DNA of 63,002 nucleotides, the filler included. It is 13 parts of 13 records of this genome, joined end to end, with 100 filler letters (N's around TTAATTAATTAA, not from the genome) between each part and the next. Parts side by side here need not be neighbours in the genome. Positions count along the whole stretch, not along the records: positions 38,814 to 43,845 come from SRR15195285_5447; 12 more parts are not named here. The stretch is one strand, 5' to 3'. Within the stretch, counting starts at the first letter, position 1; each line of letters begins with the position of its first letter. The notes beneath the pieces are model-generated. The model ran no database searches. It saw nothing but the letters and a program-made list of their open reading frames with translations, and was not told the origin of the DNA. The position numbers and the translations under genes were made by a program. Positions 1 through 45,633 of the stretch are shown here, in pieces.

Positions 1-227
1 ATTTTCGAATTTCAACCTGGGTACATGCATCGTAGGCCTGATTGGCGTTGCTGCTGGGGCGCCCTTGCGCCGGGTCTGTGCGCCGCGCGCGCGCGGTCGC
101 CGCCGGTGCGCGTGCGGACGCGACGGCGGCGCGGCCCACGCGTTCCGCGGTCGACGTACGTGGTAGTGAGATCGTTAGGTCGGCGACTGTACGCCACGCG
201 GTGTACGCCGCACGCGGCGATTCGAGA

Positions 228-3076
228 ATGTTGGTCACCCTGCTGTCCATCGTTGTGGCGCTCGCGCTGCTAGCTGGGGCCCCCGCTAGCGCTACTGCAG
301 CATCATTTGGTGCGAACACAGCAGCTGCAGCCGAACCGTCCGGTGCCGCTCAGCCTGCTCTTCTTCCAAACATGGTCTCCATCCCATCGGGTTCTTTCAC
401 GATGGGCTACTCGCGGACACCACTGCCTGCTTCGCTGCTCTCCGGACCGGGCAAAGGCTCGACACCCAAATCGATCTTTCCGAACGGCGACGCGGACGAA
501 TCGCCAGCCCACACGGTGTCCATCAGCTCTTTTTCGATCGGGGCGACTGAAATCACAAATGTGCAATACGAGGAGTACGACCCAGCGCATCGCGTTCTGC
601 GCGGGCGAGCAGGATTTTCCAAGGAAGATGACGAGGCGGTAGTTTTCGTATCGTACGAAAATGCTACTAGCTACGCCGCGTGGCTAGCTAAGAAGACGGG
701 AAAGCCGTACCGCCTGCCTAGTGAAGCCGAATGGGAGTATGCTGCGCGCGGTACTGACCCAGCTACAAATGCTTCGTACTTCTGGACTGGGGACAGCCTA
801 CCAGCTGCACTGATGAAGCAGCAGAACGTCGGGACCACTAAAGCAAGCTCAGGTGGCCTGCCCAATCGTCAGGGCGTTCCGCTTACGGTAGCACGCTACG
901 CTCCAAACTCGTTCGGGTTGCACGACACCCTAGGGAATGTGGAGGAGTGGTGTATGGACTGGCACGGTCCCTACGTTTCAGATGTTTTACAGGACCCAGT
1001 CGGTCCGTCAGATGGTATTTTCAGAGTCACTCGCGGTGGATCGCACTCTACCGAGCCATATTACCTTCGTACTGCGAATCGTCATGGCGCGTTGCCAGCT
1101 GAGCGGAGCTGGGTCATCGGGTTTCGAGTCGCGATGGGAGGGACAGCAAAACCTGTCGCAGAGTCACGCCGCCAAACTCCAGAACCAGCAGCCACAACAG
1201 CCTCAGACGCACCACCGGTGGTAGCTCCTGGCTATGTGGCACCGAGAAAAAATGCAAGCTGGCCGACGTGGTCGAAGGTGCCCATGGCTCCAGTGTTGCG
1301 GCGATACGTCATCTGGCCAGGCGATGGATCTGCGTTGCCTTTCTCCGTCCACAACCACGAGCCGACCATTGCAGCTTGTCCGAACGGAGACTTTGTGGCC
1401 AACTGGTACAGCACAAACTGTGGAGAGGCAGGCCGCTGCGTTGGCCTCGTACAGGCTCGACTTCGGAAAGGGACTGACACGTGGACAACTGCCAAAGTTC
1501 AATTGGATGCCCCGGATCGGAATCAGTGTTGCACAGCATTTTATTTCGACCACGACAGTGGTGTATTGTATCATTTTAGCGCCATGTCCGCAGCCGGGTC
1601 GTTTCAAGACATTATGGGAACCTTGCAGTGGTCGACCGATTGCGGAGAAACGTTTACTAAACCTAAAATCATCTGGCCAGACCACGGTATTGAGCACCAG
1701 ATCGTTGTCACCATCATCAAATCCAAGCGCGGCGAAGTGATGGTGCCGTGTGACCACTGGGGCATGACGCTGCCATATGGACCGATGGTCGGAGACCAGT
1801 CGATCATTCAGCACGCGCCAATTGGCCGGATTGCTGACCCTGCAGCATGGTGCGGCCTGTCTACCACACTGTGCTTGCGTGTCTGCAATCCTATTTCTCG
1901 TCGTCATTGTACAGATGGTGCCTCACCATTTGGATGTCTGATGGTCGATTCGTAACTGATCACAGTAATTGTCCCATGCCGGACTGGGCACTGCAGGCAC
2001 GTTAATGCTTCATCCGATCCACCAGCAACGTCGACACAGAGTCACCATACCTCTTTAGTGGAACTACGAAACGGCTCCTTCGCAGCAATTGGTGTGACTG
2101 GCTCCATAGATTATGTATGATTTAGTGTAATCGCTTGCGCTAGCCACAATCATGACACGCGTGAACGTGAACATTTGGCTTGGCACGCCTGCAGGACGGT
2201 CGCATGATATCGACGGCACAATGCCGTACGCGCTGTCAACTGACGGTGGTCACGTGTGGACGGCCAAGAAGTCGTCATTCACTGGGATACACGGTGGCGA
2301 GCGAGAAGTCATGATTCGCCTGGGGTCCATCGACCAGCCACTAATGCACTGTACATTCGCAAACGGTACAGGCCACGACCCACCAATGCTGCAATTGTGC
2401 CTGTTGCGATGCTGTGGATCGAATTTTGCCTGGAGAGATTGAAATCGCCCAGCGTGGAGCTGACTCACTTTGCATGCGTTCACAGGCCCACCCGCCTATG
2501 CAAGTACGACCATCCCTACCGCAAACGATGACCGGTTCACGATGACAGTACGTCAGACGATCGTTAGGCTGACTGACTCCAGGTCCCTCGCGAACGCCTC
2601 GTCGCTGCAGCTGACGTGATCTGCTCGTTTGATTTTTGTGCACAGGGAGTTTATTGCGCTGTGAGTTTCGATGACGGAGACTCGTGGGATACTCGCCGCC
2701 CAATAACTGCCGATTCGACGTTGCATGGTCGCAACCAATCTGGCTTTGACGGGCACAATTTTGTAAGGCCACCTTCCTTGCTGTTGCGCATCCACATACC
2801 AGTAAACACCCGTTCGTATCCCTTGCTTCGGGTAGCGGCAGAGTCGTGGTCTATTGTGAAACTTGTACCGTACTACTAAGAATGAAAATGTATGCGATGC
2901 ATGGTGTGCGTGGCTTGCAGACAATGAGCTACAACACGACCGAACCAAACGGCTACATGGCAGCAGCAGTATCTGATGACGGCATCATCACGCTGATCAC
3001 CTCTCGCAACTCCTACAGTTTCAATTTGGCGTGGCTCAAACTCAAGGCGTCGATCCCGCACATTAACGATGCATGA
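228..3076 (+). CDS. Secreted FGE/SUMF1-like domain plus BNR (Asp-box, sialidase-like) beta-propeller protein, 6 exons
   Basis: Signal peptide MLVTLLSIVVALALLAG. FGE-family motifs RLPSEAEWEYAARG, NSFGLHDTLGNVEEW, RVTRGGS and IGFRV. Asp boxes STDCGETF, STDGGHVW and SFDDGDSW. Manual splicing keeps the frame open: exons 228-1849, 1997-2091, 2195-2365, 2486-2547, 2646-2762, 2921-3076, all GT-AG. Confidence 0.85.
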
Positions 3077-12589: not shown

Positions 12590-15500
12590 TTAGTTGAACA
12601 CCTCGTCTTGGCTGTGCAAGGCGCTGTCGGGAAAGTTTGCCGCATTCGGTACCACATCGAGTATCCGGTCCTCAGCGACACCAAACCACTGCGCCAGTCC
12701 ATACCACATTCCCTCCCTGCACCAACAAACAAGCACACGTCAATGCACAGCAAATCGACCTCGCCCAAGTGCAAGAGCCACGTCCGTACCATGGCGTTGT
12801 TGGAATGAAGACACCACGGCCGCGGCCGACCTCAAGATCTGAGGTGTCTGGGTTTATGTCCTCTGGATACACACCGTGGATGTGGCGTCCCTTGACCGAA
12901 CCACCCTGCACGCTCGCATACCAGCAACACGACAAGTTTGCTCAGGAGGGATAGTGTGATGGCAGTTCGGTTTGGCATCAGCAGGTGGTTTGACCGAGAA
13001 CAGCAACAAGGGTGTACTCAATCTAGGCGCATACTTACTAGGATAAAGTTGTTGCCTCCCCAAGCATGGTCGGTACCAATTCCATTGGACGAGATCGTGC
13101 GCCCGAAATCACTTATCGAAACTATAGTGGTGGCGTCCCACAAATCCAGAGCAACCAAATCGGCGTGAAGTGCAATGAGATCTCTGTTGACTCTACCGAG
13201 CAGCATGTTGATGTCCATGTGAGGCGGGTTCTGATGGGCATCAAACGTGCGGATGCCGATCATGAACACATCGCGCTCGGACTCATGGACGGAGTGATCG
13301 AGACTCATCACTCTAGCAATTTGCTGCATGCCTGTGCCTCCACTGTAGTCGCCTTGCAAGTTGATTGCAGCCATTTGCGCCCCTAGCCTTTCCGTCTGGC
13401 TCAATGCCTCTTCCAGGATTCCCGCGTACGTATCGGCATAAAGTGATTCTGACTCGCGGCCTGTGAGCTCATGGAGAGTGGAACCAAGTGAGTCGTACTG
13501 ACTGAAGCGAATTACGCCACCGCCACCAATGACAGTCGGCGGCACGGCTCCCTCGACAAGCTTGCGGATGCCGTACATGGAGTACACCTTAGAGCGGTAC
13601 GGGTTCTCTTGCGTGGTCAGCGCGTCCACGATGCGTCCAAGCACACCACTGGCTCCTTTGTTTTGAGCATGCACACTTTGCGCCTCCCTTTGCTGCGAGT
13701 CATGTCCAAATAGGCCCCCCGGACGGTTGACTTTCCGCTGGAAGTCGTCCCGTGTGATCGGGGCTATGAGTGTTCCAATGTTCGCGAACCAAGAAGCCTG
13801 GCCGGCGTCCCAGAGCTCCTTCACCTTGGTTAGCGCTGGGTGAGTTCCGTATGTCGTGCACGGTTGTGGTGGGCTGCCTGCATGGAGCTCCATAGGAAGG
13901 ATGCTCCCCAGCGGCAGCGCGATATTGCTTCGGATTTGCGCGTACTCGGCGTACAGGTCCCTCACGCACCCACTGTGTGGAATCAACATGTTGAAGGAAT
14001 CAGCGCCGCCTTCAAGGAAAATCACTACGATAGCCTTGTATGGGCGGTTCTGCGTCGGGATCTCCGGCAAAGCTGGACGCGGATGGTCTCGAAGCACGTT
14101 CTGGTTGGTGGTAGCGTACTCGGCAGAGAACGTAAACAGCTTGATCAAGTCAGGGAGCAATTCTGCTTCGGACGGCACCGGCTCAGTCGGGAGTCCCGGG
14201 GTGTAGCTGCATCCCGCAGCAACACAGGCGGTTTCATCACCCAGCGACGTGACGGCCGTACACGCGGAAACCCCGTCGGGATCAACTGGAAGAGAAGGCG
14301 GTTCTTCGATAGACAGCAAAATGCTGCCATCAGCGGCTGTTGCCGGTATTGGTGACATATCTGCCACGTTGGACACCCCCACAGCAAGATTGTCGCCACC
14401 GCCTCCTTCGTTAGCAATCGCGCGCAAGAAGTACCAGTTGCCAGCAACAAGGGCTTGCGGTGCAGATTGCTGCTGGCCGTACTTATTCCACTGACGGCTG
14501 CTAGTCCATCCAGGGACAGCAGCAATTTCGGAAGCACTCATGGCAGTATCGAGATCTGTGCCGAACCACAAATGGGCGTTGTCATCGGCGGCGATCTGGA
14601 ATACGTAGTCGCCATCTACTGGAGGGCTAAACCATGCGTCCATTTCGGTACCGCAACCGTTGCACACATTCGTTGGGGCTTCGAAGATGTCGAAGATCTC
14701 TTCGACATTCGGAGGATTGTTGATGTAGTTGTCGTTCGCGAGCATCTGCGCGACAGCACCACCACTCACACCAGCCCAGCGCCGATAGTTGACACCGGCT
14801 GTAGCATCACCTCGCGGTGGAACATACGAGCATGTAGGCTCGCCAATAACTCCATCCCTCATCGCGTTCACCTGCAGCTCCTGTACCTGCAGGCACTGCC
14901 CTTCCTGCCGCACGGTGACGTACCGCCCGGACGTGCCAGGGCACGACAGGGTCGAAACAGGGTCGCCCGTGAACACAAGCGGCGCGGCGCACTGTGCACC
15001 GGCGCTGAAGTCGGGCGTGTCGCTGACAAGGACGGTGCCACCGTTGATGCGTTCTCCGCAGCAGTCCATGCGGTGGAAAACCTTTACGTTGTCGATCGCA
15101 ACCACATCTCCAAGGTCAACCTGCACGTACTGCTCCCCACTACATGCTGAGTGAAAGATCGGCCCATCGGTTAGACCATCGACAATGTTCGACGCTCCAC
15201 AGCAACCAGTGTGCCATTCTGAAGACGCGGACGTTGGTCTGTTCCGGGCGAGATTTACCCACTGCACTTGAGACCTTTCCCAGAAGTTGCGCACGGCAGC
15301 CGGCTCACGCCCATTGGTCAGCAGCAAAGCCAGCTCTGAGATGACATCGCCAGCTCTGTTTTGATATTCGTAAGTGAGAACGCCATTGCTAGTCATTCTC
15401 TTCGCCGCCTGCTCGGTACAGCTCGTAGGCAAGTATAGATACTTAGCTGGTGCCGCGGTGTTGTACCCGAAGCCCCCGCCGCATGGTGTCAGCCCGTCGT

Positions 15501-18500
15501 CCACAAGCGCGGCCATGCCGTTCATGTAGCCAATAAGAAACGGGGTGATCAGTATCTCCGCTTCTGGAGCGTACAGACCAGCCTTGGCAACGGCGCCTGC
15601 CGGTGAATAGTCAGGCAAGTAGAAGTTGAAAACTGACGGTGCATTGTACGCTTGCTGCCCGATCTGAGTAATCAGGTGCGGCATTTCAATCTCCATGCCA
15701 CGGCTGGGCACGTACTCTAGGGATCGGAACGCGTGCAGCAACTTCAGCAGCGGCTCACGCACCTTGCCTGCTGCCGGGTCGAGGTCAAGGGTGAGGTCAC
15801 GTGCCTCACGGTCCAAGAAAATTGCGGCAACAGCGGCACCCAGATCGCCGTACTCCCCGGAGTATACGCGTCCTCCGTACTCGCCTGTTCGGAAGGCTGT
15901 CACGACCTCCAGAACATACCTTGGAGACGGGTTAGAGCTCGTCAAGAGCTGCATAATCTTTTTGCAGATGAAAGGGGCCGTCGATGGGTGTGTCGTAAGG
16001 TGATCCAGCACAGCCTCAGTCTCGAGCTCAGCTTGGCGTAGGGTTGGGTGCTCAAAGTCCATTACGGTGGGGGGGTTGCGAAACGATGAATCATCTATCA
16101 GGACGCTGAGGGCTTCGTTCTTCAAGAACTTGGGCGAGCCAGTTGCTGTCGGCACCTCAAATATGGTATCTGTGTTGTAAACAAGGTCGCCAGATGCTGC
16201 AGTGAATTCGTAAAAGGCAGGGGAGTACACGTAGCCGTCCGGTGTTTGGATTGCCTCTGTGAGGACCTCGACCTCCTTCAACTGCAAGCACCCATTGCCC
16301 AGCCTCACTGTCACGTAACGTCCGGACATCCCGTTGCACATATTCACCGTAGAGGGATTGGCGTGGGCCAGCGTGTCACCGCACTGGACACCAGTGGAGA
16401 AGTCATCGGTATCGCTTATGAGGATCTGACCACCGTTGATTCTATTGCCGCAGCAGTCCGTGCGGTGCCAGATCTTGACAGCGTCAATTCTAGTCACCTC
16501 CTCCAAATCGATTTGCGCCCACTGTTCTCCAGAGCACGCTGAATGATACAGGCCATCTGTTGTGCCGTCTGTAATGAACGCATTCTGTGAGGCACCGAGA
16601 TTAGACGATGATGCAACCGGCTTGTTTAGGGCAATATTGATTTCTTCGATCTCAGCGTCCAGTACTTCGTGCATTCGCATGCGTCTAGACCACACACCAA
16701 CCTCAGACGCGCTGCATAGTTCCGAAGTGCAGCGGAAGTACTCGCCGTCGTCGTATGCCGTTGGATCCAAGGCACCAACGTGAAGGTTCGAAATCTCACC
16801 CATAGTCGGGATGCGCGAACTATCTGTGAATGCAGCTGAGCTGACTGCTTCAACGTCACACAGGCAGGTATCATCAACCACGGTGCACGAGCTGGAGCAT
16901 CCGTCTGCGGCTTTTGGATAGGATTCCTGGCTCCACAAGACATCAAACACACTCTTTGAGCCAACTGCCAGGACGTCAGCAACCGTCTCAGGCTGTATCC
17001 TCGAGTTGAGTGCTGAATTATCCACCAGCTCGCCAGCGTGCACGACGTTGACGCGACCATCACGCTGGATCTGCACTTGCGTTGAGCAGCTGCGACCCAT
17101 CCACGTCGAGAAGCGCCACTGCGAGAACGGGTGGCAGGTTCCCCAGCCAGCCATAGCTGCATTGCCTTGGCAAACGTCTCTCCCTGTGGTTGCGCATCGG
17201 TGGGCTGCATTTGCGTACGTCACTCGCTCTCGTTTGTACTCGCACATCGCGGTACCCTGGCCATCTGTGGCATCATTTGGGCAACACAACGGGGCTGCGG
17301 CAGCACTTCTGGGGTCGGAGCACGACATCGTGTTGACGAAAGGTGCGCCATATTTGACAAACTGTCCATCCTCGAAAAATGGAAAGCGAGCGCACGCGAA
17401 GTCGATGCCCTCGTAGTACGCATCTCTACCAGAGCCGTCCACGACTCGCAGGTACGGAGCGCGATCCCAGTCGCACTCGGGGCCGGAGCACGGCAAAGAC
17501 TGTTCCAGAGAAACTTCGCTCGGGAATGTGCAGTCCCCTCCCACCGGATCGCACAGAGCCTGGAATAATGACGAGGATGGGTCGTTCAGGGTGGCGACGG
17601 ATACAGCCCCAGACTCATCAGCTGGAAGGTGCTCAGTGGTGTCGCCACGATACGCATAGGAGAAGCCTTTACGTAAGAACGGCCGCTTGGGCAAGTCAAC
17701 GCACGCAGGCAAACCATCGCCTATGAAGCCATCGAACAGATCCATTTTTGGCGATGCGTCCCGATCACCGGCAACTATCTTTAGTGTGTCTGTTGCACCA
17801 ATTCTGTTCGTCCGCAAGTCGTTTCCCGTCGACACGAAACCAGTCCACGTTCTCGCAAAGCTGGCCACGTCCGACACGCCGTAAGTAGCAATGCGGTTGC
17901 CGTCGTCATCCAGGACCGGTGTGCCGTCAAGGTTCAGGTGCTCTGTCCCAACAGTGAACAACCTGCGTCGCAGCCTCTTGTCAGTTCACCGGCAAGTCGA
18001 GAGCAAGGAACGAATGAAAACGACTGTGATCGACGTACTGTATGCACTCGCGTGCGAAGTTTTCATCGGCGAAATCACCTGATACTTTAGCTGACTTGGA
18101 GTTGAGATAGGTAAGCATGACTGCCATGGACTCACTGTAGGCTACTTCCTTGATCAAGTCGTGAAAATTTCCGAATGCGTTCCTCAAGAAGATATCGTAG
18201 TACTTGGCCGTCACTTCCATGTTCCCGGCAAATCCAACGTCTGCCACAACGTAGATTTGGCTGAGGGCCCATGCGACCCTCTGGCGCAGCTGGTCCTCTG
18301 CGTAGAACACAGCATTTTGCCACATCATCGACTTCGGCCAGTAGGAAGGTCTCTGGATAGATCTGGACCCTCTCCCGCCATACTTGTGTCCGAACATTGG
18401 ATCATTAGCCACCTCACCGATTGAGCCGCAGGATTCGGAGACGCCAGGGTCGACCGATATATCCTCAACACCAACCATCTCGGCCAGCCAGGGCACCTGA

Positions 18501-21195
18501 ACAGTGGTGGGCAGAGAGCTGAACTCCACCTGCTCTCCGAGGACACCCATGTAGCGAACCAACGGTGTCGGATTGTTCCTATTCCACCGTGTAGGCCAGC
18601 ATGATAGGTCTGCACAGACAGACGTAAGATCCAGTTCAGTCTGCCCCAGGGTAGCCGGACGCGTCAACACGCGGTCCCCACCCGGACCACCTCCGTACTG
18701 TATGTGTTCTCCGCTGAGTCTTCCCCTCCAGTACGCAATATCATATACGTCGTAACTCTGCGGGTGAACCTGTTCGTAACACGTGCCGTCCAGAGTCACT
18801 TTCGCCCCCACGATAGAAACGTCGTTCAACTCCGTAGTGCATTCGCCTTGGACAGCCTCAATGATGATGATGTCAGCGGTCTCCAGAACGAGTCCAGTTT
18901 GCGCGGGACCCTCGCCCTTGAGCATGGTGCATGCCGCACTCCCTGCAGCCATGTCAGAGACAGGCCCACACGCGCGCCAATTATTGGCGTCGCAGCCATA
19001 ATCATGGAGCCAGCCACAGTTCGGATCGGCGTCGCACACAGCCTGCATGTCCTCGAGTGTCCCATGTCTACCTGTTGTGCCACTACCCGCATCACATGCC
19101 GCAGGATCATTCGCGTTGTTTGGGCCTGAGGTGTACTGAGGGCCAAGCCCCTCAACCGGCACCTGCTGCAGCGCGGCAGACAGAGAGGCCAGAGTCGCGT
19201 CGTCAAGCGGTGTATCCGCGTCGCACGAGCCAGGTGACTTCTTCCATCGTGTCTGTACGGAGCACGCCGATATATCGTCGTTGCTGAAGCCTTCTAGGGA
19301 GAAGCCAGTGACGGCATAAACGTACTTCTGACTTTTCGTGAAGAGCGACTGCATCAGCTCAGCGTCAAGCGTCACGTTTCCTTCAGTCCACTCCGGCTGC
19401 GCACAAGAGTTCTGGCGCACGCAGCCACGGGCGTTGGTAAACGACGGTCGTGCCGCTGGGCAAAACTTTGGGGTAAGTGACGGAATGAATTGCTTATCCC
19501 GCTGGTAGATTATGCGTTCTTCGATGTACGGTGAATCAACGGTGTTCTCAACCAGCTGGCTTCTCGGCTCGTGCCGATAGTACTTCTCACCGTGAAAGAT
19601 GAACACTGTCGGATTAGGCGGGAGCTCACAGGGGTCTACAATGTTGCGCAGTGAGAACGCGTTCAACAGCGGAAGCGGCATAGGAACCATATCGATTGCT
19701 TCCAGCTGCTGGGTAATGAACATATCTGGCTCAAGAAGGTTGACCGGTGGATTTCCGAGGATGATCTGATTCTGTCCTGGAGCGCCACAGCTGGAAAGCA
19801 TCCAGTTGAAGCCAGGGTAATCTATGCCTGGAAGCAGGAAAGACACATCGCCACCCTCGAACTCTTGTACCATGCAGATCTGACAACAACAAACATTCCG
19901 CATACGTCCGCATACGCACACACATGTGGAACTAGAGTCAGAACAGTTTGGATGCACAGCGCGAAACAGCAGTTGATCTCCACATGCGCACCGTGTAAGT
20001 TGTATTTGCCAGCAGCCGAGGGGCAGGTGCTGGGGGAGGGGCCGGCATCGACGGATCTGGGATGCACCGGTGTGATGATGCCTGACGAACACAAAATCGT
20101 ATCAGGCTGAGATAATCGCAAACGGCACTTGATGCGCCGCAGCAAGCAGACGAATCGTCACTAGTCCTGTGAATGATGAAACTAACTAATAGAAGGATGA
20201 GCGTCGATGACAGGCCAGCATGAGTCCAATGCGTCTCGAAGCTCGTTGACACTCACTGTAGGGTCGGTGGTTACGCAGCCGTTGAGATCTCTGCCAAATC
20301 TGCAACAGTAGCCGTTGGCCCCACAGCGCCCAGGGCATGGGCCATGAGCACCACATTGCCCCCAGCAAGCTTCGCCCATATTTCGTAGGCCTGAGTCTTC
20401 GCCTGGGACCTCTGCAGGCGGATACTGATATGTACTGAGACTGCAATCCGCAGGACCATTCCTCCATGCACCTCCCGCTCCCCTACGCGGAGATGCGGAG
20501 GTCTCTTGGAGGTGGCATTCCATGGTGTCTTCGTTCAAACTAAAATAGCCACAGCCATCCGTTGCGATACAGCGCTGATGGCATGCGTGAACTGAGACCT
20601 CAACGGTGGGACCAGTGCCTGGCATGTCTAACGGGGTGCGGAATCCCCGCTTATAGCACGACCACTCAATATCTTCTCGGATGTCTTTTGTACTCTGAAC
20701 CACTGTTCGGACAATGCCTTCGATGCTCAGCGAGTATGATCCGTCTGCATTGAGCGAAACGTCAAGCTGTTTTCCCTCATCAAATCTCGAGAACGCAAAA
20801 GTCACCCAAGATGAAGCTTCGCTACACGGTGGCCGCATCATCGTTTGAGGCTTGTTGTAAGCCTGGGGGTTCGTGCGTCGCCGCAGGTACGCCCTGTGTA
20901 AGTTGGGCTCCATCTCCATCTGTGTGTACAGCCACTCTTCGATGGCTGCCTCAGTCTCTTCGACTGTAGACGCGCTGAGGCTCTCGATTTCATCCATCTT
21001 TGGACCAAAGGTCGTCTGACCCAGGAAGCGAGAAGCAATTACCTTCGGGTCTTGTGAAATGAGTGAAGTTCCGTCATAAGTGCGCAGCTGGTACGTGGCT
21101 CCATCGGGCAGCGTTGTTGAACACGTGACCGGTGGCGTTGTCGTGCACTCAAAAGACACTGGGCTCGGCATCGTGCCTTCCCACTCGTTGCCATT
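12590..21195 (-). CDS. Giant DUF1800-DUF1501 fusion protein with PAN/apple-like, two F-type lectin and PA14 domains (5' truncated)
   Basis: DUF1800 motifs ASRFLGQTTFGP, DQLRQRVAWALSQIYVV, DENFARECIQ|LFTVG (split by intron 17963-18038), HPSTAPFI, GKVREPLL and APSVFNFYLPDY. DUF1501 motifs YKAIVVIFLEGGADSFNMLIP, LFGHDSQQ, SDFGRT and GTDHAWGGNNFIL|GGSVKG. Exons approximately 21195-20257, 20082-19993, 19880-18039, 17962-13039, 12905-12790, 12716-12590 (TAA). Confidence 0.88.
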
Positions 21196-38494: not shown

Positions 38495-38813
38495 CGGCGC
38501 GAGCAGTGCAGCCTGAATCCTTGGCGCTCTCGATGTGCCCCGGCGCCAGGCAAGCTAAGCGGGCGGCGATGACGAGGCAGCCCCACGCGTGCTAGAGCCT
38601 CGGTGCGCTCGTGCGTCTCCTGCACGCCGTTGGGCGTTGGCACACTCGCGACACACAGCATCACGCATGTATGGTACACGCAGCTGTTTATATCTCCGAG
38701 TTCCAGCTGCGAGNNNNNNNNNNNNNNNNNNNNNNNNNNNNNNNNNNNNNNNNNNNNTTAATTAATTAANNNNNNNNNNNNNNNNNNNNNNNNNNNNNNN
38801 NNNNNNNNNNNNN

Positions 38814-40098
38814 CAGCAGCAGCAGCAGCAGCAGCAGCAGAGGGAGCAAGCCGGATGAAGCGGAGAGCGTGCGTGTCTGCCTTACTACGACGCCAACCTC
38901 TGCCCGGCCTTTCCCGCCAGGCCCCCGCATCGGTAGGAACGCCATTTTCTGATCGCAGCAAGCGTACGAGAGCCGAAAGGGTCAAACGAAACTCAACCAA
39001 AACTCAACGCACAGCTGCACGAAATGCCGTAGGCACCCAACTACAAAAGGACGGCGGAAGGAAAAAGGCGGGGGCCTAGGTTGATCTTACCTTATCTGTG
39101 AAATTGCGAAAGTCGACAATTGAGGGCCGCCGCAGCTGATATCCCTGGTGCAGCCTGTCATACGGAACGCCGCCCTCGAAAATGGTCGCACGCAGCGGAG
39201 CGGGTGCCGCGGCATCGCCCTCAGCTGCCGCCGGCCCAAGACCTGCCGCTTGCCTTGCCTTGTCCAGATCCAGGTGAGCACCAGAGCCGCCGTGGACTTG
39301 CAGCTGGAAGACAATCGCTTGACCTTTGGACACCACGATGCGCTGAAACAATTCGTCGAAATTGTCGAAGGTGAAGCACAGCAGCGGGTAGGTATACAGC
39401 GTTTGCCCCTTGACCACTACGCTCTCTGGTCGGCTGATCGAAGGGTACGCCTCTGCCACCACCTTCTCTGCCGCCGAGAAGCGGTCGTCCGTCATCTTGC
39501 CCACGGCGACAGTGACGGTGTAACGCAGCTGCAGGAGAACGTTGAGACAGAAAGTGTCGCGCCAGCGCACGCCCGTGCCCGGGAAGAGGCGCTGGACATT
39601 CTCAGGATCCGAGGGCTTGCTTCGCCGCTTGACGAATACCAAGTCCTCAGACCCTCCTAATGCCTTTGCGTACATCTCTTCGTTACTCTCCTCGCTCACA
39701 ATATCCTCGAGCGACTGATCGGCATCCGAACCTGCCACGTAAAAGATCAAGTCGTCCACTGCACACGAGATCCAACAGCGTCAGCACATCGGCACCTCCA
39801 CCACACCACGCGGGCTGGACTCTCTGGGCTCGGCGCGCAACGCATCCCCCGGGGACGGGATTATACGCCGGCTGAGCATGCGCTGTTTGTGCCGAGCTGA
39901 CTGGACTGTGACCAGCAAACCCCAGAGACGAGATGATGGGAGCGAGGCATAGGAGGACGCAGACTTACGGTGAGGGTCGTGATTGGCGTGGAAAAACTTC
40001 CGGGCCCCCTCCATCCATTCTTCTGCCTCTGTCGGCGGCGCTTTAGCTACGGCACAGATGAACCCTGCCAAGGAGTCGCACCCGGCGGCTGCTGCCAT
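38814..40098 (-). CDS. KIAA0930/DUF2045-like protein, multi-exon, 3' truncated
   Basis: DDLIFYV, VFVKRR, VRWRDTFCLNVLLQLRYTVTVAV, TYPLLCFTFDNFDELF and TIFEGGVPY fit the family pattern as I recall it. GT-AG introns. Confidence 0.7.
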
Positions 40099-40763
40099 CG
40101 CCACGGGGCGAGACCACCAGCCAGAGCAGCCAGCGCTGCACAGAGCCGCGCCCTGCCCGCCACCTGCGTTGGAGAAGCCGCCCTGCCACCTCTGCAGGAG
40201 CCCCTGCCACCTGGGAGCCTCTGGGAAGGCCCGCCACGCGCCGGTGTTTCCCAGGCAGCGCCCTTGCGGCTTGGGCACTGCGCCACGACCACAGCACAGC
40301 CGTTCCAGCACCCTGCGCCACCCCGCGCGGTGACTGAGGATTGACAATTATGCAAACTGGTATAAATGTCTAATGGATTCTTCGATTGACGACTACATGT
40401 ATACTACATTGTATTCGGCTTGGTGAACCGGGTCACGGACCAACGTTCCAAAATACCAGGTATCAAATTTAGAAGACTCAGCTGCTACCGATTCTATCCA
40501 GCTGGTACACGATGTGCCGGGTGTAGTCTCAGTTGTCCCCTAGCACCGGACAGCAGGCCGCTCGTGCATATATGCAGCTCGTGGCTAGGGGCAGGCTGGC
40601 AGCCCGCACCGCGTGTCGCATTGCGCAACAAATGGCGCTGCGAGGGCCCCTCGGGCTCGTTGCAGAACCGACGCAGTGAGAGCATGCCCATGGTCGCCAA
40701 GAGATCGCTCGCACGATGTGGCGCGTTGTGCACCGGCGAGGATATCATCCGCTACCGACTTGT

Positions 40764-43577
40764 TCATTTCAAGCTTGACTGCAAGCTCGTGTAAGCCGCT
40801 TTTGCTTTGTAGTGGTCGTCGAGCATGCACCCTCCCGCTTTGGCTGCTCCTGCGCCGGCTGGACCGCCACAGAAAGTGTCCGTGAAGCCCTCGAAGTGGA
40901 GCGCTTTGCAGTAGTGGGCGCCAGCGCATGCCGCGCCAACCGTATGGTAAACGTCCGCGAGCGCTTGCGAGCGAAGGTCCGCACGAGCAGCCAAGTTTTC
41001 AGCCACCGGGGCTGTCTGCAACGATATCCATACAGGGAAACCAGCTCCACCGAACGCTGCGATCGCCGCACTGAGCGCAGACAGGTTCGTACACTCATCG
41101 GAGGACTGGTCTGTAGCGACAACACCAGTGCACTGCAGCTTGAAAAGCACGCCATCGATCGGTGTGCCCTGTGTCTTCGCTGCCTGCAGTAGCTTTAGTG
41201 TTGCAGAGGCCTTCGTGCCCAGGCCGGTTATCTGGTCCCGTGCACCCGCCGCTGCCGTGATGCCTGTGTCGGCGTAGAGCAAAGACGGCTGCTGTGCAGC
41301 GTGCGCCTTTGTAGCGTCCACTGCGTTGCGTGCTGCAACAAACGCAGTGTTAAGCAATGCGGCGTTGCCATCAGAGCTTGAGCCGTAAGCTTTCGCCCAG
41401 ACGTTGTCTTGCGGCCCAGTTCCAGCACTACGCGGGGCACCCGAATCATCGAGCAAGTCCGAAACAACCACTGCTGCACCGAATGGGATGGCATCAAAGT
41501 CATCAAACATGATCTTCTGTCCCGCGCAGGCCGTGACAATGTATGACAGCACGTTCGACACATGCTCATTGATCAACGCAGCTGCGGTGGATCGAGCTGT
41601 ACCCACCGCTTGCAGCCACCAGCTCGGCAAGTCTTCACGGAGGGCCGGCACAAGTGGCGTGTCGAAGAATGCTGTGACTCCATCCTGTGACTGAGCATAG
41701 TGCAGCAGGCTTTGTGCGCAGTGGTAGTCAAAGGCGCTGCGGTTCGGCCGGAGGTAACGCACACTGGTACAATTTGCCCACGCAAACATCGAGAACTGGT
41801 TGAAGAAGACCATGTGGTACGGCTGGTATGCGTCGCCATACGCGAGATCCCCCGTCTTGTGACTCTTATCTCCGCGCACATGTGGTGGGGGCTGGTCTAC
41901 AATCGTTGCACCGACCAAGATTGACCGCGCAGCGCCAAGACTTTTCAGCGGGGTTCCAGGCGGTAGGACATCGCAGTCCTGGGTTGTCGCCACAACTGAG
42001 CGTAGGTATGTGTGCAGCTGATCATGGACGAAGCAAACCGTGCCGCCTCCCCGCTTCTGCTGCGAGCTCATTCGATTGATGCCACCCACGCAGATGACGT
42101 TCGGGTTGGTGCTCCGAGCGACGGCGCCCATGTTAACCCCTGTTTGATTGGCCGCAGCAACCCTGCGCTCCATCGATATCGCTCCACCAGCGTGAGCTTC
42201 GGCAGCCGTGACTGACACTCCCCACTTCGCATGATCGCTGGTGTAGTGGTACGAGCAGTGACTTCCAGGGCCAGGGTCGGCTGCCACTGGAGTCATTGAG
42301 GTCCCCAGGTGCCTGCGGAGAGTCGGCGCTGTCGGTGCCTCGGTGGCCTGCACGCCGTCGATTGCTCGCTGTATGAATTGCTGCCGCGATGTGTTGTGCT
42401 TGCAGGGGAACTCCATATTGATTGCGTTGATCGACGGCATCGTGTGCTCCGGCGGACAGAAAGAGTCGAGGATCGATGGATTGCGCCGCCAGGTTTCCCA
42501 GAGCATCGCCTCTACCTTGTGCGTTGTGGCGAGGCTCGGCATCACCTCGTCCTCGTAAACGTTCTCGATATGCAGTGGAGATTTCACGAACGACGTCGCC
42601 GCAAGCGCAGGGCTGCCGCCCATACCACGCGTCTTGACGGCGGCGCGGCTGGAGTTGGCGAGACCGCGGTAGCCACGGGCGAGCGCAGCAAGGGACGGGA
42701 CGTCTGCGGCCAAGGAGCCCGGCGTCGCGACACCCCCTACGAGCCCCGGCATCTGCATGCCGTAAACAATCGCGTGGGCAGTAGTCATTTGCGTCGCCGC
42801 CTGCTCCACACCCTCCGCGCTCAGCGAGAGGCAGAGGTATGTCTGGCCGAACTTGGGCGAGCCCGTGTAGGCGTATTGCGCGAGGCGCACGTCCGGCAGC
42901 TTCGGCGTGGAGTGCACCAGCCAGAAGCCCACCTTGCCATCTGTCACGAGCACACCCTTCGCGTGCGCGCCTTTGTCACCCTCTGGTGCTGGCGGGCCGA
43001 GGATTCGCGCGCCGTCTGGGGGCTGATCGTTGTACGCGACATAAGCCAGGCCGGCGTCGCCTTTACCCGCGTAGACGTGTGCAAAGCTGCCGCCCAACAT
43101 GCCGGCGGACGCATTCGGCGCAGCGGGCTGCGCCGATGGGTCCGTAACCACGTCGCCTCGACTGTCGCGGTACGCGTAGAAGAGCCCGGCCGGGAGCTTG
43201 TACATGAACGCCCAATCGACCGCGTTGCCAGCGCGCCCGCGGCAGCTCGGCGGCTGGCGCTGCGGCAGCACGTCGGCGAGGCATTCGCCGAGCGTCATGA
43301 CGTCGCCATCGACCGCGGCCGGGAAGCAGTGACGCGCCTCCGCCATTGAGGCCACGTCGTGCTCCGTCAGACAGTCGGCGACCGCGCGGCAGCTCGGGTT
43401 CCTATCGCAGTGCTCCAGCACCCCGGGGCACTTGTGCTCCAGCGGAGATCGGCACGCAGTCGGCGTGCGGGCCTGCAGGTCGCACACCCCGCGCCCTGTC
43501 GGCAGCGTGTGGGCCTCCGACGGCACGGCGGCGGCAATCACCACCATCACCACGGCGGCGATCACAGCGCCGAGCAT
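40764..43577 (-). CDS. Deoxyribonuclease II fused to a C-terminal GH10-like pseudo-glycosidase domain
   Basis: DNase II motifs VDWAFMYKLP, YNDQPP, HAKGVL, GFWLVHSTPK, GQTYLCLS, DHAKWGVS and CVGGINRMSSQQKRGGGTVC. The C-terminal ~390 aa follows GH10 motif order and ends in MLDDHYKAKAAYTSL. Confidence 0.85.
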   Translation of the reverse strand: MLGAVIAAVVMVVIAAAVPSEAHTLPTGRGVCDLQARTPTACRSPLEHKCPGVLEHCDRNPSCRAVADCLTEHDVASMAEARHCFPAAVDGDVMTLGECLADVLPQRQPPSCRGRAGNAVDWAFMYKLPAGLFYAYRDSRGDVVTDPSAQPAAPNASAGMLGGSFAHVYAGKGDAGLAYVAYNDQPPDGARILGPPAPEGDKGAHAKGVLVTDGKVGFWLVHSTPKLPDVRLAQYAYTGSPKFGQTYLCLSLSAEGVEQAATQMTTAHAIVYGMQMPGLVGGVATPGSLAADVPSLAALARGYRGLANSSRAAVKTRGMGGSPALAATSFVKSPLHIENVYEDEVMPSLATTHKVEAMLWETWRRNPSILDSFCPPEHTMPSINAINMEFPCKHNTSRQQFIQRAIDGVQATEAPTAPTLRRHLGTSMTPVAADPGPGSHCSYHYTSDHAKWGVSVTAAEAHAGGAISMERRVAAANQTGVNMGAVARSTNPNVICVGGINRMSSQQKRGGGTVCFVHDQLHTYLRSVVATTQDCDVLPPGTPLKSLGAARSILVGATIVDQPPPHVRGDKSHKTGDLAYGDAYQPYHMVFFNQFSMFAWANCTSVRYLRPNRSAFDYHCAQSLLHYAQSQDGVTAFFDTPLVPALREDLPSWWLQAVGTARSTAAALINEHVSNVLSYIVTACAGQKIMFDDFDAIPFGAAVVVSDLLDDSGAPRSAGTGPQDNVWAKAYGSSSDGNAALLNTAFVAARNAVDATKAHAAQQPSLLYADTGITAAAGARDQITGLGTKASATLKLLQAAKTQGTPIDGVLFKLQCTGVVATDQSSDECTNLSALSAAIAAFGGAGFPVWISLQTAPVAENLAARADLRSQALADVYHTVGAACAGAHYCKALHFEGFTDTFCGGPAGAGAAKAGGCMLDDHYKAKAAYTSLQSSLK

Positions 43578-43588
43578 CTGCTGCCGCG

Positions 43589-43678
43589 GATGAGGATGAG
43601 GATGAGGATGCGGATGAGGATGAGGATGAGGGTGAGGATGAGGATGAGGGTGAGGGTGAGGATGAGGATGAGGATGAG
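43589..43678. repeat. (GATGAG)n hexamer microsatellite just upstream of the DNase II ATG
   Basis: Read directly. Confidence 0.9.
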
Positions 43679-43945
43679 GCGCACCGCCTGCGTTCCAAGC
43701 GCCGGGATGGGAGTGTTAAAAGCACGGTAGGCGGCGTGCACTCTACGCCATACACCGTCCCAGCCGACGCGCTGAGTTCACACCCTTCCGCTGAGGGTAT
43801 CACAGAAATGGTACCATTTTCCAATACAGACTGCACAAAAGTTGANNNNNNNNNNNNNNNNNNNNNNNNNNNNNNNNNNNNNNNNNNNNTTAATTAATTA
43901 ANNNNNNNNNNNNNNNNNNNNNNNNNNNNNNNNNNNNNNNNNNNN

Positions 43946-44934
<989 letters not shown>

Positions 44935-45633
44935 GGTTTTCACTCCGCAAAGCAGCAGCAAAACGAGGCTGCGCTTGTCCTACCTGTAGCTAAAGTGCGC
45001 ACCCGCCAACTCCCACCAAGCGGCGTCTGCTGGCCACGTTCGTCTGCTCCGGTGCCGCCTGCGTCGACCTCTCGACCAGCATGGAGTCGACTCGATCGAC
45101 CGCATCGCACGACCGGATCGCTCGTGGGATCGACTGCGTGCTGCTGCCTGCTCGCTCCCGACTACGGTACTGTGTACACCATAGTCGACATAGTACATGA
45201 TCATGTGAACATGTACCGGTATGTACTGTGCATGCAGTAACCGGACTACATTTGGGAATGTTTCTGCACTTGCCGGCGCTAATTATCACGTGCGTACGTG
45301 ATTCTGACTGCTTCGCATTTCGGACCCTGGCTGAGCCCTCAGTTCTGTGACTGACCATCGGTCCCGCATATACGCAGCGCATCCCCGACGCGAGTACTTG
45401 TGACATGGGTTGTGGTAAATGTATCTTGTAGGGGATATCAGTTCTCACTGAAATCGACTGTATTCGAAAGGTCGCATCGCTACCCACAACCCAGCAACCC
45501 GAGATGCCGAGAACGATGGTGCTCGCGCGTAGGAAGCCCACCCACCACGCAGCGCCTCAAACTGGTCGATCAGTGACAAACAAGGGCGCGTCCACGTCTA
45601 GGTAGGGCTTCTCGTTGGGGTTTCATGCGATGG

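Follow-up and report, generated by a model that had tools for sequence, protein, structure and literature searches.

A DNase II joined to a predicted pseudo-glycosidase barrel of the GH10 family in an uncultured marine protist

Within a 63,002-nucleotide (nt) stretch of DNA, spacers included (hereafter, the window), lies a gene at 40764..43577 on the minus strand whose product joins a DNase II domain to a C-terminal barrel derived from glycoside hydrolase family 10 (GH10). The gene is genuine and expressed, consists of a single exon and belongs to an uncultured marine protist. We propose that the encoded protein is a digestive acid DNase of the secretory pathway that carries a rigidly attached, non-catalytic pseudo-glycosidase as an accessory domain, and we put the probability of this reading at about one half. 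The evidence for the fusion, for the state of each of its two halves and for the maintenance of the barrel is laid out below, followed by the other roles that the barrel could play.

Results

The gene encodes two domain families in one reading frame

The open reading frame (ORF) takes as its start the first start codon that follows an upstream stop, and it runs through 937 codons and a stop codon without an intron. A preliminary description, made from the letters of the sequence, had reported a single uninterrupted ORF at this place, and the ORF listing agrees. Every motif quoted in that description is present in the translation: HAKG at residues 205-208, DHAKW at residues 448-452, and ANCTSV, DTPLVPA, AVVVSD, YADT, IDGVLFKLQ, ISLQT and LDDHYKAKAAY. 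The hydrophobic N-terminus and the Cys-rich segment that it mentioned are likewise found, at residues 1-22 and 23-112, and both are seen in homologues. A Pfam search of the 937-residue protein returned two families only, DNase_II and Glyco_hydro_10, each above its curated cut-off, in keeping with the two domains first proposed. All features of the gene given below are on the minus strand.

The two domains are joined by a short linker, VLPPGTP (residues 537-543; 41949..41969), which lies between the end of the DNase II domain (TTQDCD) and the barrel. In an alignment of four proteins, comprising the window protein and the homologues P0003, P0004 and P0005 (alignment A1), linker residues V537, L538, P539, P540, G541 and P543 are invariant, and the distant fragment P0012 reads LPTGTP.

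The fusion is conserved and is spanned by independent sequences

The junction, which had been placed near 41960 and flagged as a possible chimera in the preliminary description, sits in uninterrupted sequence of a 5032-nt contig (38814..43845, no strand assigned). It is also spanned by seven other distinct sequences (P0003, P0004, P0005, P0012, P0016, P0062/L001 and P0063). Two of these, P0003 and P0004, are fused over their full length, so that the same architecture is found elsewhere, with the junction present in five further sequences. The protein search gave identities of 89%, 78% and 59% for P0003, P0004 and P0005, the last of which ends with its contig after ~104 residues of the barrel, and P0012 crosses the junction though it comes from a clade only ~40% identical. 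The homology searches with the full-length protein and with the DNase II region were word-indexed, returned the same four proteins each, and are uninformative on distant DNase II fusions.

L001, a metagenome locus with 76% identity whose sequence ends at residue 577, has the junction within one exon and contains two canonical GT-AG introns, one of 264 nt in the nuclease (L001:1042-1305) and one of 114 nt in strand 1 of the barrel (L001:1876-1989). The window gene is continuous at both positions; therefore, these introns were gained or lost within the gene family. Three gene calls, P0062, P0063 and P0064, extend into introns of this kind.

All or part of the stretch occurs in 19 of 23 listed runs from 16 studies, nearly all of them labelled as seawater or marine metagenomes. 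Contigs from four of the 19 runs (X1, X2, X14 and X18) were compared with the stretch, and no joints were reported in them. A DNA contig of 2863 nt (X2 record 27; 9 differences) covers 40755-43617 and thus the whole ORF, and a second DNA contig, of 1871 nt and from a different study (X1 record 2), crosses the junction; the best DNA contig may be the window's own source. The junction is also crossed, with 0 differences in each case, by a metatranscriptome contig (X14 record 12; 41611-42059) and by a contig from an oligo-dT library (X18 record 17; 41776-42022). RNA contigs cover 23 of 30 bins of the stretch in X14 and 5 of 30 in X18, where empty bins are no evidence of anything.

An artefact, whether a chimera of assembly or amplification or a read-through across two genes, would suit a window that is a string of short contigs with spacers, that is, a fragmented assembly. 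Against it stand the position of the junction inside contiguous sequence, the seven other sequences that span it, and the agreement of DNA contigs from two studies with contigs from two RNA libraries. We regard the chance of such an artefact as vanishingly small: a chimera is effectively excluded, and the fusion is genuine.

The N-terminal part suggests a secreted protein

Residues 1-22 (43512..43577) form a hydrophobic N-terminus that, as read from the sequence, is probably a signal peptide; the homologues P0003 and P0005 also start with hydrophobic residues. It is followed by a Cys-rich module (residues 23-112; 43242..43511) with eight Cys that are invariant in A1 (C42, C50, C57, C63, C69, C84, C99 and C112), the last of which probably belongs to the DNase II domain. 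The module found nothing in Pfam at E<=10, and a search of the Atlas with it gave no usable match. It includes a conserved, helix-like stretch, HDVASMAEAR. The whole protein contains 25 Cys and seven N-glycosylation sequons, and from these together with the hydrophobic N-terminus we infer that it enters the secretory pathway.

The nuclease half retains the motifs of DNase II

The DNase II domain occupies residues 111-536 (41970..43247). It matches Pfam DNase_II (PF03265) in two stretches, the best of which covers residues 111-391, with an E value of 2e-52 and a score of 178.9 bits (cut-off 23). A sequence search of the Protein Data Bank (PDB) found the Burkholderia DNase II structure 5i3e (E 5.1e-13). 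Two lineage-specific insertions interrupt the domain at about residues 392-435 and 455-490.

Both HxK motifs were claimed to be kept, and both align with 5i3e_A. The first, H205-A-K207 (42957..42965), corresponds to HtK in that structure and is nearly invariant in an 11-row alignment of the domain (A4), composed of the window protein, four protist relatives and six metagenomic DNase II sequences that are probably bacterial. The second, H449-A-K451 (42225..42233), lies in DHAKW and corresponds to DHAKW of 5i3e_A; its D-H-A-K is invariant in all 11 rows. CVG-IN and the RGGG-type block are invariant or nearly so in the same alignment. By these sequence criteria the nuclease half looks competent.

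For Burkholderia thailandensis DNase II, the published work identifies the HxK residues as H100/K102 and H279/K281, with the first His forming a covalent intermediate and the second activating water (PMC5449587). By family resemblance, the DNase II half of the window protein would cut DNA at acid pH without a metal; H205 would attack the phosphodiester to form a phospho-histidine, and H449 would then activate water for release (PMC5449587).

The protein thus resembles the DNase II family (5i3e/5unb and animal lysosomal DNase II) in its strong Pfam match, both HxK motifs, the CVGxINR...KRGGG block and an N-terminus that is probably of the secretory type. It differs in its additional N-terminal Cys-rich module, its two internal insertions and its C-terminal GH10-fold barrel of 394 residues.

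The C-terminal half is a GH10-derived barrel

The barrel spans residues 544-937 (40767..41948), as placed by Pfam PF00331, a custom profile and a structural model. Pfam Glyco_hydro_10 matches residues 586-932 over profile positions 27-308 of 311 (E 1.1e-08, 35.1 bits, cut-off 22.1), and a custom profile built from 34 true GH10 domains, drawn from the database matches of the barrel described below, scores 121.7 bits on the C-terminal 393 residues. The custom-profile alignment begins at the barrel's first strand (LKSLGAARSILVGATIV, from residue 544, nt 41948), which matches the start at roughly 41950 given in the preliminary description. The PDB sequence search also found the GH10 xylanases 1xyz (E 2.4e-06) and 3wub (E 6.3e-05). 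By the criterion of sequence, the homology of the barrel to GH10 is established.

A model of the barrel was built from a 37-row alignment (A3) that includes true GH10 sequences. It predicts eight strand-helix units at a predicted local distance difference test (pLDDT) score of 87.8 and a predicted template modelling score (pTM) of 0.90. Foldseek placed 1xyz_A first for this model (E 1.7e-17, template modelling score 0.83 on the target). VIA-align superposed it on 7wha_A with Z 37.9 and a root-mean-square deviation of 2.3 A over 312 of 319 residues, and some 50 GH10 entries were similar. The C-terminal part is therefore predicted to be a GH10-like (beta/alpha)8 barrel, the fold that had been proposed for it.

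The barrel contains nine Cys and three of the sequons (N602, N612 and N831), with N612 and S614 invariant in A1. An RGD tripeptide at residues 568-570 (41868-41876) is invariant in A1 and is also found in P0016 and L001. The tripeptide falls in an insertion, modelled with low confidence, in the loop that connects strand 1 to helix 1; the more distant P0012 does not have this loop.

The glycosidase machinery has been replaced

The profile alignment, the model and a site table agree on what stands at the two catalytic positions. Directly after strand 4, where GH10 enzymes have the acid/base Glu of VVNE, the barrel reads VVSD (S706-D707), with D707 (41457..41459) at the Glu position. At the end of strand 7, ITELD of GH10 is represented by I851-S-L-Q-T855 (41013..41027), so that S852-L853 occupy the place of the Glu and its predecessor, and L853 that of the nucleophile. 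Residues 849-859 contain no carboxylate, and the next one, E860, is not conserved.

The residues that contact sugar in GH10 have fared similarly. ENxxK has become ANxxS, GHxLxW has become DTxLxP, and QxH has become KxQ, while the W of WGF is E896 and the second Trp of WGFTDxxxW is Gly. The contacts replaced are hence the E and K of ENxxK, the H and W of GHxLxW, the N of NE, the Q and H of QxH and both Trp of WGFTDxxxW. In the -1 subsite, E/N/K, H/W, Q/H and W/W correspond to A/N/S, T/P, K/Q and E/G, and N602 is the sole survivor.

Two claims of the preliminary description need to be amended here. It had every key GH10 site changed, which is right for the nucleophile (now Leu), for NE (now SD) and for most of the contacts, but N602 of ENxMKW and D770 of YNDY are retained. 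It also had the acid/base Glu lost; the Glu is gone, but its substitute is Asp707, not a non-acidic residue.

Compared with GH10 xylanases (1xyz, 7wha and Cex 2exo), the barrel shares the full (beta/alpha)8 architecture and the order of the motifs, and it keeps D770 of YNDY, IDGV, GFTD, the Cys pair of helix 7 and strand 8, and the C-terminal DxxYxxKxAY. It differs in the change of the nucleophile Glu to Leu, of the acid/base Glu to Asp and of the preceding Asn to Ser, and in the replacement of the Q/H, H/W and W/W sugar contacts.

These changes are shared by related sequences, which we refer to as the pseudo-family. In the rows that cover the site, the place of the nucleophile is taken by L, Q, L, S or a gap, and none of them has E or D there. 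Asp stands in the acid/base column in 6/6 rows that cover it, E896 is found in 8/9 rows, and position 813 is K or R in 6/7. In more distant relatives, a D or E follows the nucleophile column by one to two positions (VDE in P0007, LDA in P0009, and VEA in P0010 and P0041), whereas the window's own clade has Q or H just after it. Because the nucleophile Glu and the acid/base Glu are both replaced, the barrel, as judged from its alignment, cannot be a canonical retaining GH10 glycosidase; there is little support for other chemistry in it.

The pseudo-family forms one clade and has been maintained

When the barrel was scored against 1.84 billion representatives, 57 matches were obtained at E<=0.001. 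The pseudo-family accounts for 12 of the 57, mostly fragments (P0002, P0006-P0012, P0016, P0021, P0024 and P0041), and P0006-P0008 are below Pfam detection at 1e-4. The remaining 45 are true GH10 sequences with at least one canonical motif. Pfam scans of 21 true GH10 relatives, mostly long multidomain proteins, showed a DNase II domain in none of them. In one of the true GH10 relatives, P0046 (843 residues), the fusion partner is an FGE-sulfatase domain.

In a quick tree of 40 rows with an arbitrary root, the six pseudo-family rows fall into one clade on a long stem, with support of 100 in the Shimodaira-Hasegawa-like approximate likelihood ratio test (SH-aLRT). The nearest true GH10 rows are the eukaryote-like P0015, P0042 and P0043. 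These have in common with the pseudo-family a long loop after strand 4 and extra Cys, but they keep NE and TELD and are without a DNase II domain. Since the pseudo-family forms a single clade and the scanned true GH10 relatives are without DNase II, the architecture seems to have arisen once, in one protist lineage, with catalysis lost afterwards.

The two halves have diverged to different degrees. In P0003, P0004 and P0005, identity to the window protein is 88%, 80% and 51% in the barrel and 94%, 85% and 73% in the DNase II domain. Within the barrel, identity to P0007 is 60% in the strands, 39% in the helices, 37% in the loops of the catalytic face and 33% in the loops of the back face. The coding variants in the compared contigs (two synonymous and one non-synonymous in the barrel, three and five in the rest) are too few to infer selection. 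Members of the pseudo-family down to ~40% identity (P0007 and P0008) keep an intact reading frame. Because the frame is intact to that depth, the sequences form one clade, and D707, E896 and K/R813 are conserved, neutral decay is disfavoured; by this pattern of conservation the barrel appears clearly to be maintained.

Source of the window and surrounding sequence

The window consists of ~13 short contigs joined by N44-TTAATTAATTAA-N44 spacers, seen as 24 runs of N, each 44 long, that flank the 12-mer TTAATTAATTAA in pairs. The contig that bears the DNase II-GH10 gene is flanked by spacers at 38714-38813 and 43846-43945. The parts beyond the spacers are other contigs, so gene neighbourhood across the spacers is meaningless. 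The only other clear gene on the 5032-nt contig is a DUF2045 ORF (39076-39759, minus strand; Pfam). The remaining contigs encode EGF, TIR, PAN, fn3, CH, G-patch and EF-hand domains (Pfam), and the source is therefore a eukaryote. An Rfam scan of the window gave zero matches.

Immediately upstream of the start codon, at 43588-43650, lies a (GAGGAT)n-like repeat. In 4/4 runs compared, it draws a thousands-fold contig depth and many loose ends from unrelated organisms; depth at this place is uninformative.

Several ORFs on other contigs deserve mention. A 1647-residue ORF at 13018-17961 (minus strand) combines DUF1800 and DUF1501 with F5/8 type C and GLEYA/PA14 domains, an unusual mix on a protist contig, and the adjoining 703-residue ORF at 17981-20092 (minus strand) likewise has DUF1800. 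The pair of DUF1800 and DUF1501 is typical of Planctomycetes-type bacteria. At the start of the window, an ORF at 42-1955 (plus strand) encodes an FGE-sulfatase domain with a weak BNR match. On the contig next to that of the DNase II-GH10 gene, a TIR_2 ORF at 43894-44961 (minus strand; E 1.1e-07) is truncated by the spacer.

Discussion

A proposed digestive DNase with a rigid accessory barrel

Our preferred reading, a digestive DNase with an accessory barrel, would have the enzyme at work in the lumen of endolysosomes or food vacuoles, or outside the cell, digesting ingested DNA. The N-terminus, the Cys content and the sequons are the reasons for proposing such a digestive or extracellular location. 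The barrel would be a rigidly attached, non-catalytic accessory domain, with a pocket that appears remodelled yet conserved, W600, D707, K813 and E896 standing where GH10 has E, E, Q and W. It would offer a surface for binding or positioning, for which our best guess at a ligand is glycan-rich food material or vacuolar glycoconjugates, and it would act neither as a flexible tether nor through the ancestral xylan cleft.

Several points weigh against this reading. The remodelled pocket was deduced from alignment columns and strand ends, not from three-dimensional distances. The true GH10 rows in A3 make the model lean towards the GH10 fold, and a model made from the single barrel sequence is uninformative (pLDDT 40.3). 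The barrel evolves faster than the nuclease, and in the comparison with P0007 only the strands stand out, a pattern expected from fold maintenance alone. Contigs from RNA libraries can contain DNA, which bears on the evidence for expression. The GH10 sugar contacts are almost all gone, and any binding of glycans therefore cannot be inherited from the old cleft. Tethered carbohydrate-binding modules have long, variable linkers; the lost contacts and the short conserved linker seen here lean against a classical module of this type.

Other roles for the barrel

The preliminary description had suggested that the dead barrel acts as a lectin, still using the old glycan cleft to tether the nuclease to the surface of prey, to virions or to extracellular polysaccharide. 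Descent from a glycanase fits this idea, as does the use of inactive glycosidase folds as lectins elsewhere, in the GH18 chitinase-like lectins. If the source organism were a picozoan, ecology would fit as well: Picomonas feeds on colloids <150 nm (PMC3608682), and viral DNA was found in 100% of the picozoan single cells examined (PMC7541821). Both papers are ecological colour and no evidence about the DNase II-GH10 protein. The old cleft is, in addition, a poor candidate for such a role, as nearly every residue of the GH10 -1 subsite has been replaced, the seven-residue invariant linker is not a flexible tether, and the loops of the catalytic face show no excess conservation; we consider the lectin unlikely. 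The same short, invariant linker and the core-centred conservation would suit a barrel with a structural or trafficking role, one that stabilises or shields the nuclease in an acidic, protease-rich vacuole, carries sorting determinants or glycans, or replaces part of the DNase II dimer architecture. The nine Cys and the sequons of the barrel, with N612/S614 invariant, point the same way, and D707, K813 and E896, which stand at former active-site columns, could form a salt-bridged plug. We nevertheless hold this improbable as the whole explanation, because a barrel of 390 residues is a costly stabiliser and, to our knowledge, most DNase II proteins manage without a GH10-type domain.

A barrel with a new active site, directed for example at another glycosidic or a phosphoester substrate that accompanies DNA breakdown, appears very unlikely. 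The Asp at the acid/base position in all six rows and the acidic residues shortly after the nucleophile column of P0007, P0009, P0010 and P0041 are what could be expected of it, but the corresponding residue in the window's own clade is Q or H, a second conserved carboxylate was not found in the site table, and no metal-binding motif was seen. A bolder reading is that the barrel has been re-purposed for recognition and, in rigid coupling with the acid DNase, makes a digestive nuclease that docks on glycan-coated, DNA-bearing particles (virions, vesicles or gel colloids) in protists that feed on colloids or viruses. We put this forward as quite a long shot; if true, the protein would be a molecular tool dedicated to virovory or to feeding on colloids, and its barrel the first functional pseudo-GH10.

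Pseudo-glycosidases used as binding proteins are known, among them the GH18 chitinase-like lectins and the xylanase inhibitor XIP-I, which are stand-alone proteins and either keep a ligand-binding groove or rebuild one in documented form. The barrel described here is like them in keeping a glycosidase TIM barrel after the loss of a catalytic carboxylate, but the residues of its ancestral groove are gone and it is fused to a nuclease.

Novelty and significance

The usual view of DNase II is that of a simple lysosomal nuclease that stands alone, and the usual view of GH10 is that of a family devoted purely to catalysis. Full-text literature searches found no description of a DNase II-GH10 architecture, which is consistent with the statement in the preliminary description that it had not been described. 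Outside its own family, no such fusion was found in homology searches or in Pfam scans of GH10 relatives; DNase II architectures in general were not surveyed. We conclude that known parts have been put together in a new domain architecture, and that what is new is the combination and the conserved pseudo-GH10.

In the fusion that the gene encodes, which is conserved and transcribed, an apparently active DNase II is coupled to a GH10 barrel that seems to have kept its fold without its chemistry. Here nature would have recruited a pseudo-glycosidase to serve a nuclease as an accessory domain, and the gene provides a tractable pair of domains for asking what a dead TIM barrel contributes to an enzyme. 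Because the stretch or part of it occurs in so many runs and studies, nearly all of them seawater or marine, the owner of the gene may be a common grazer in the plankton, and the gene may have a bearing on the digestion of DNA-rich particles by small heterotrophs.

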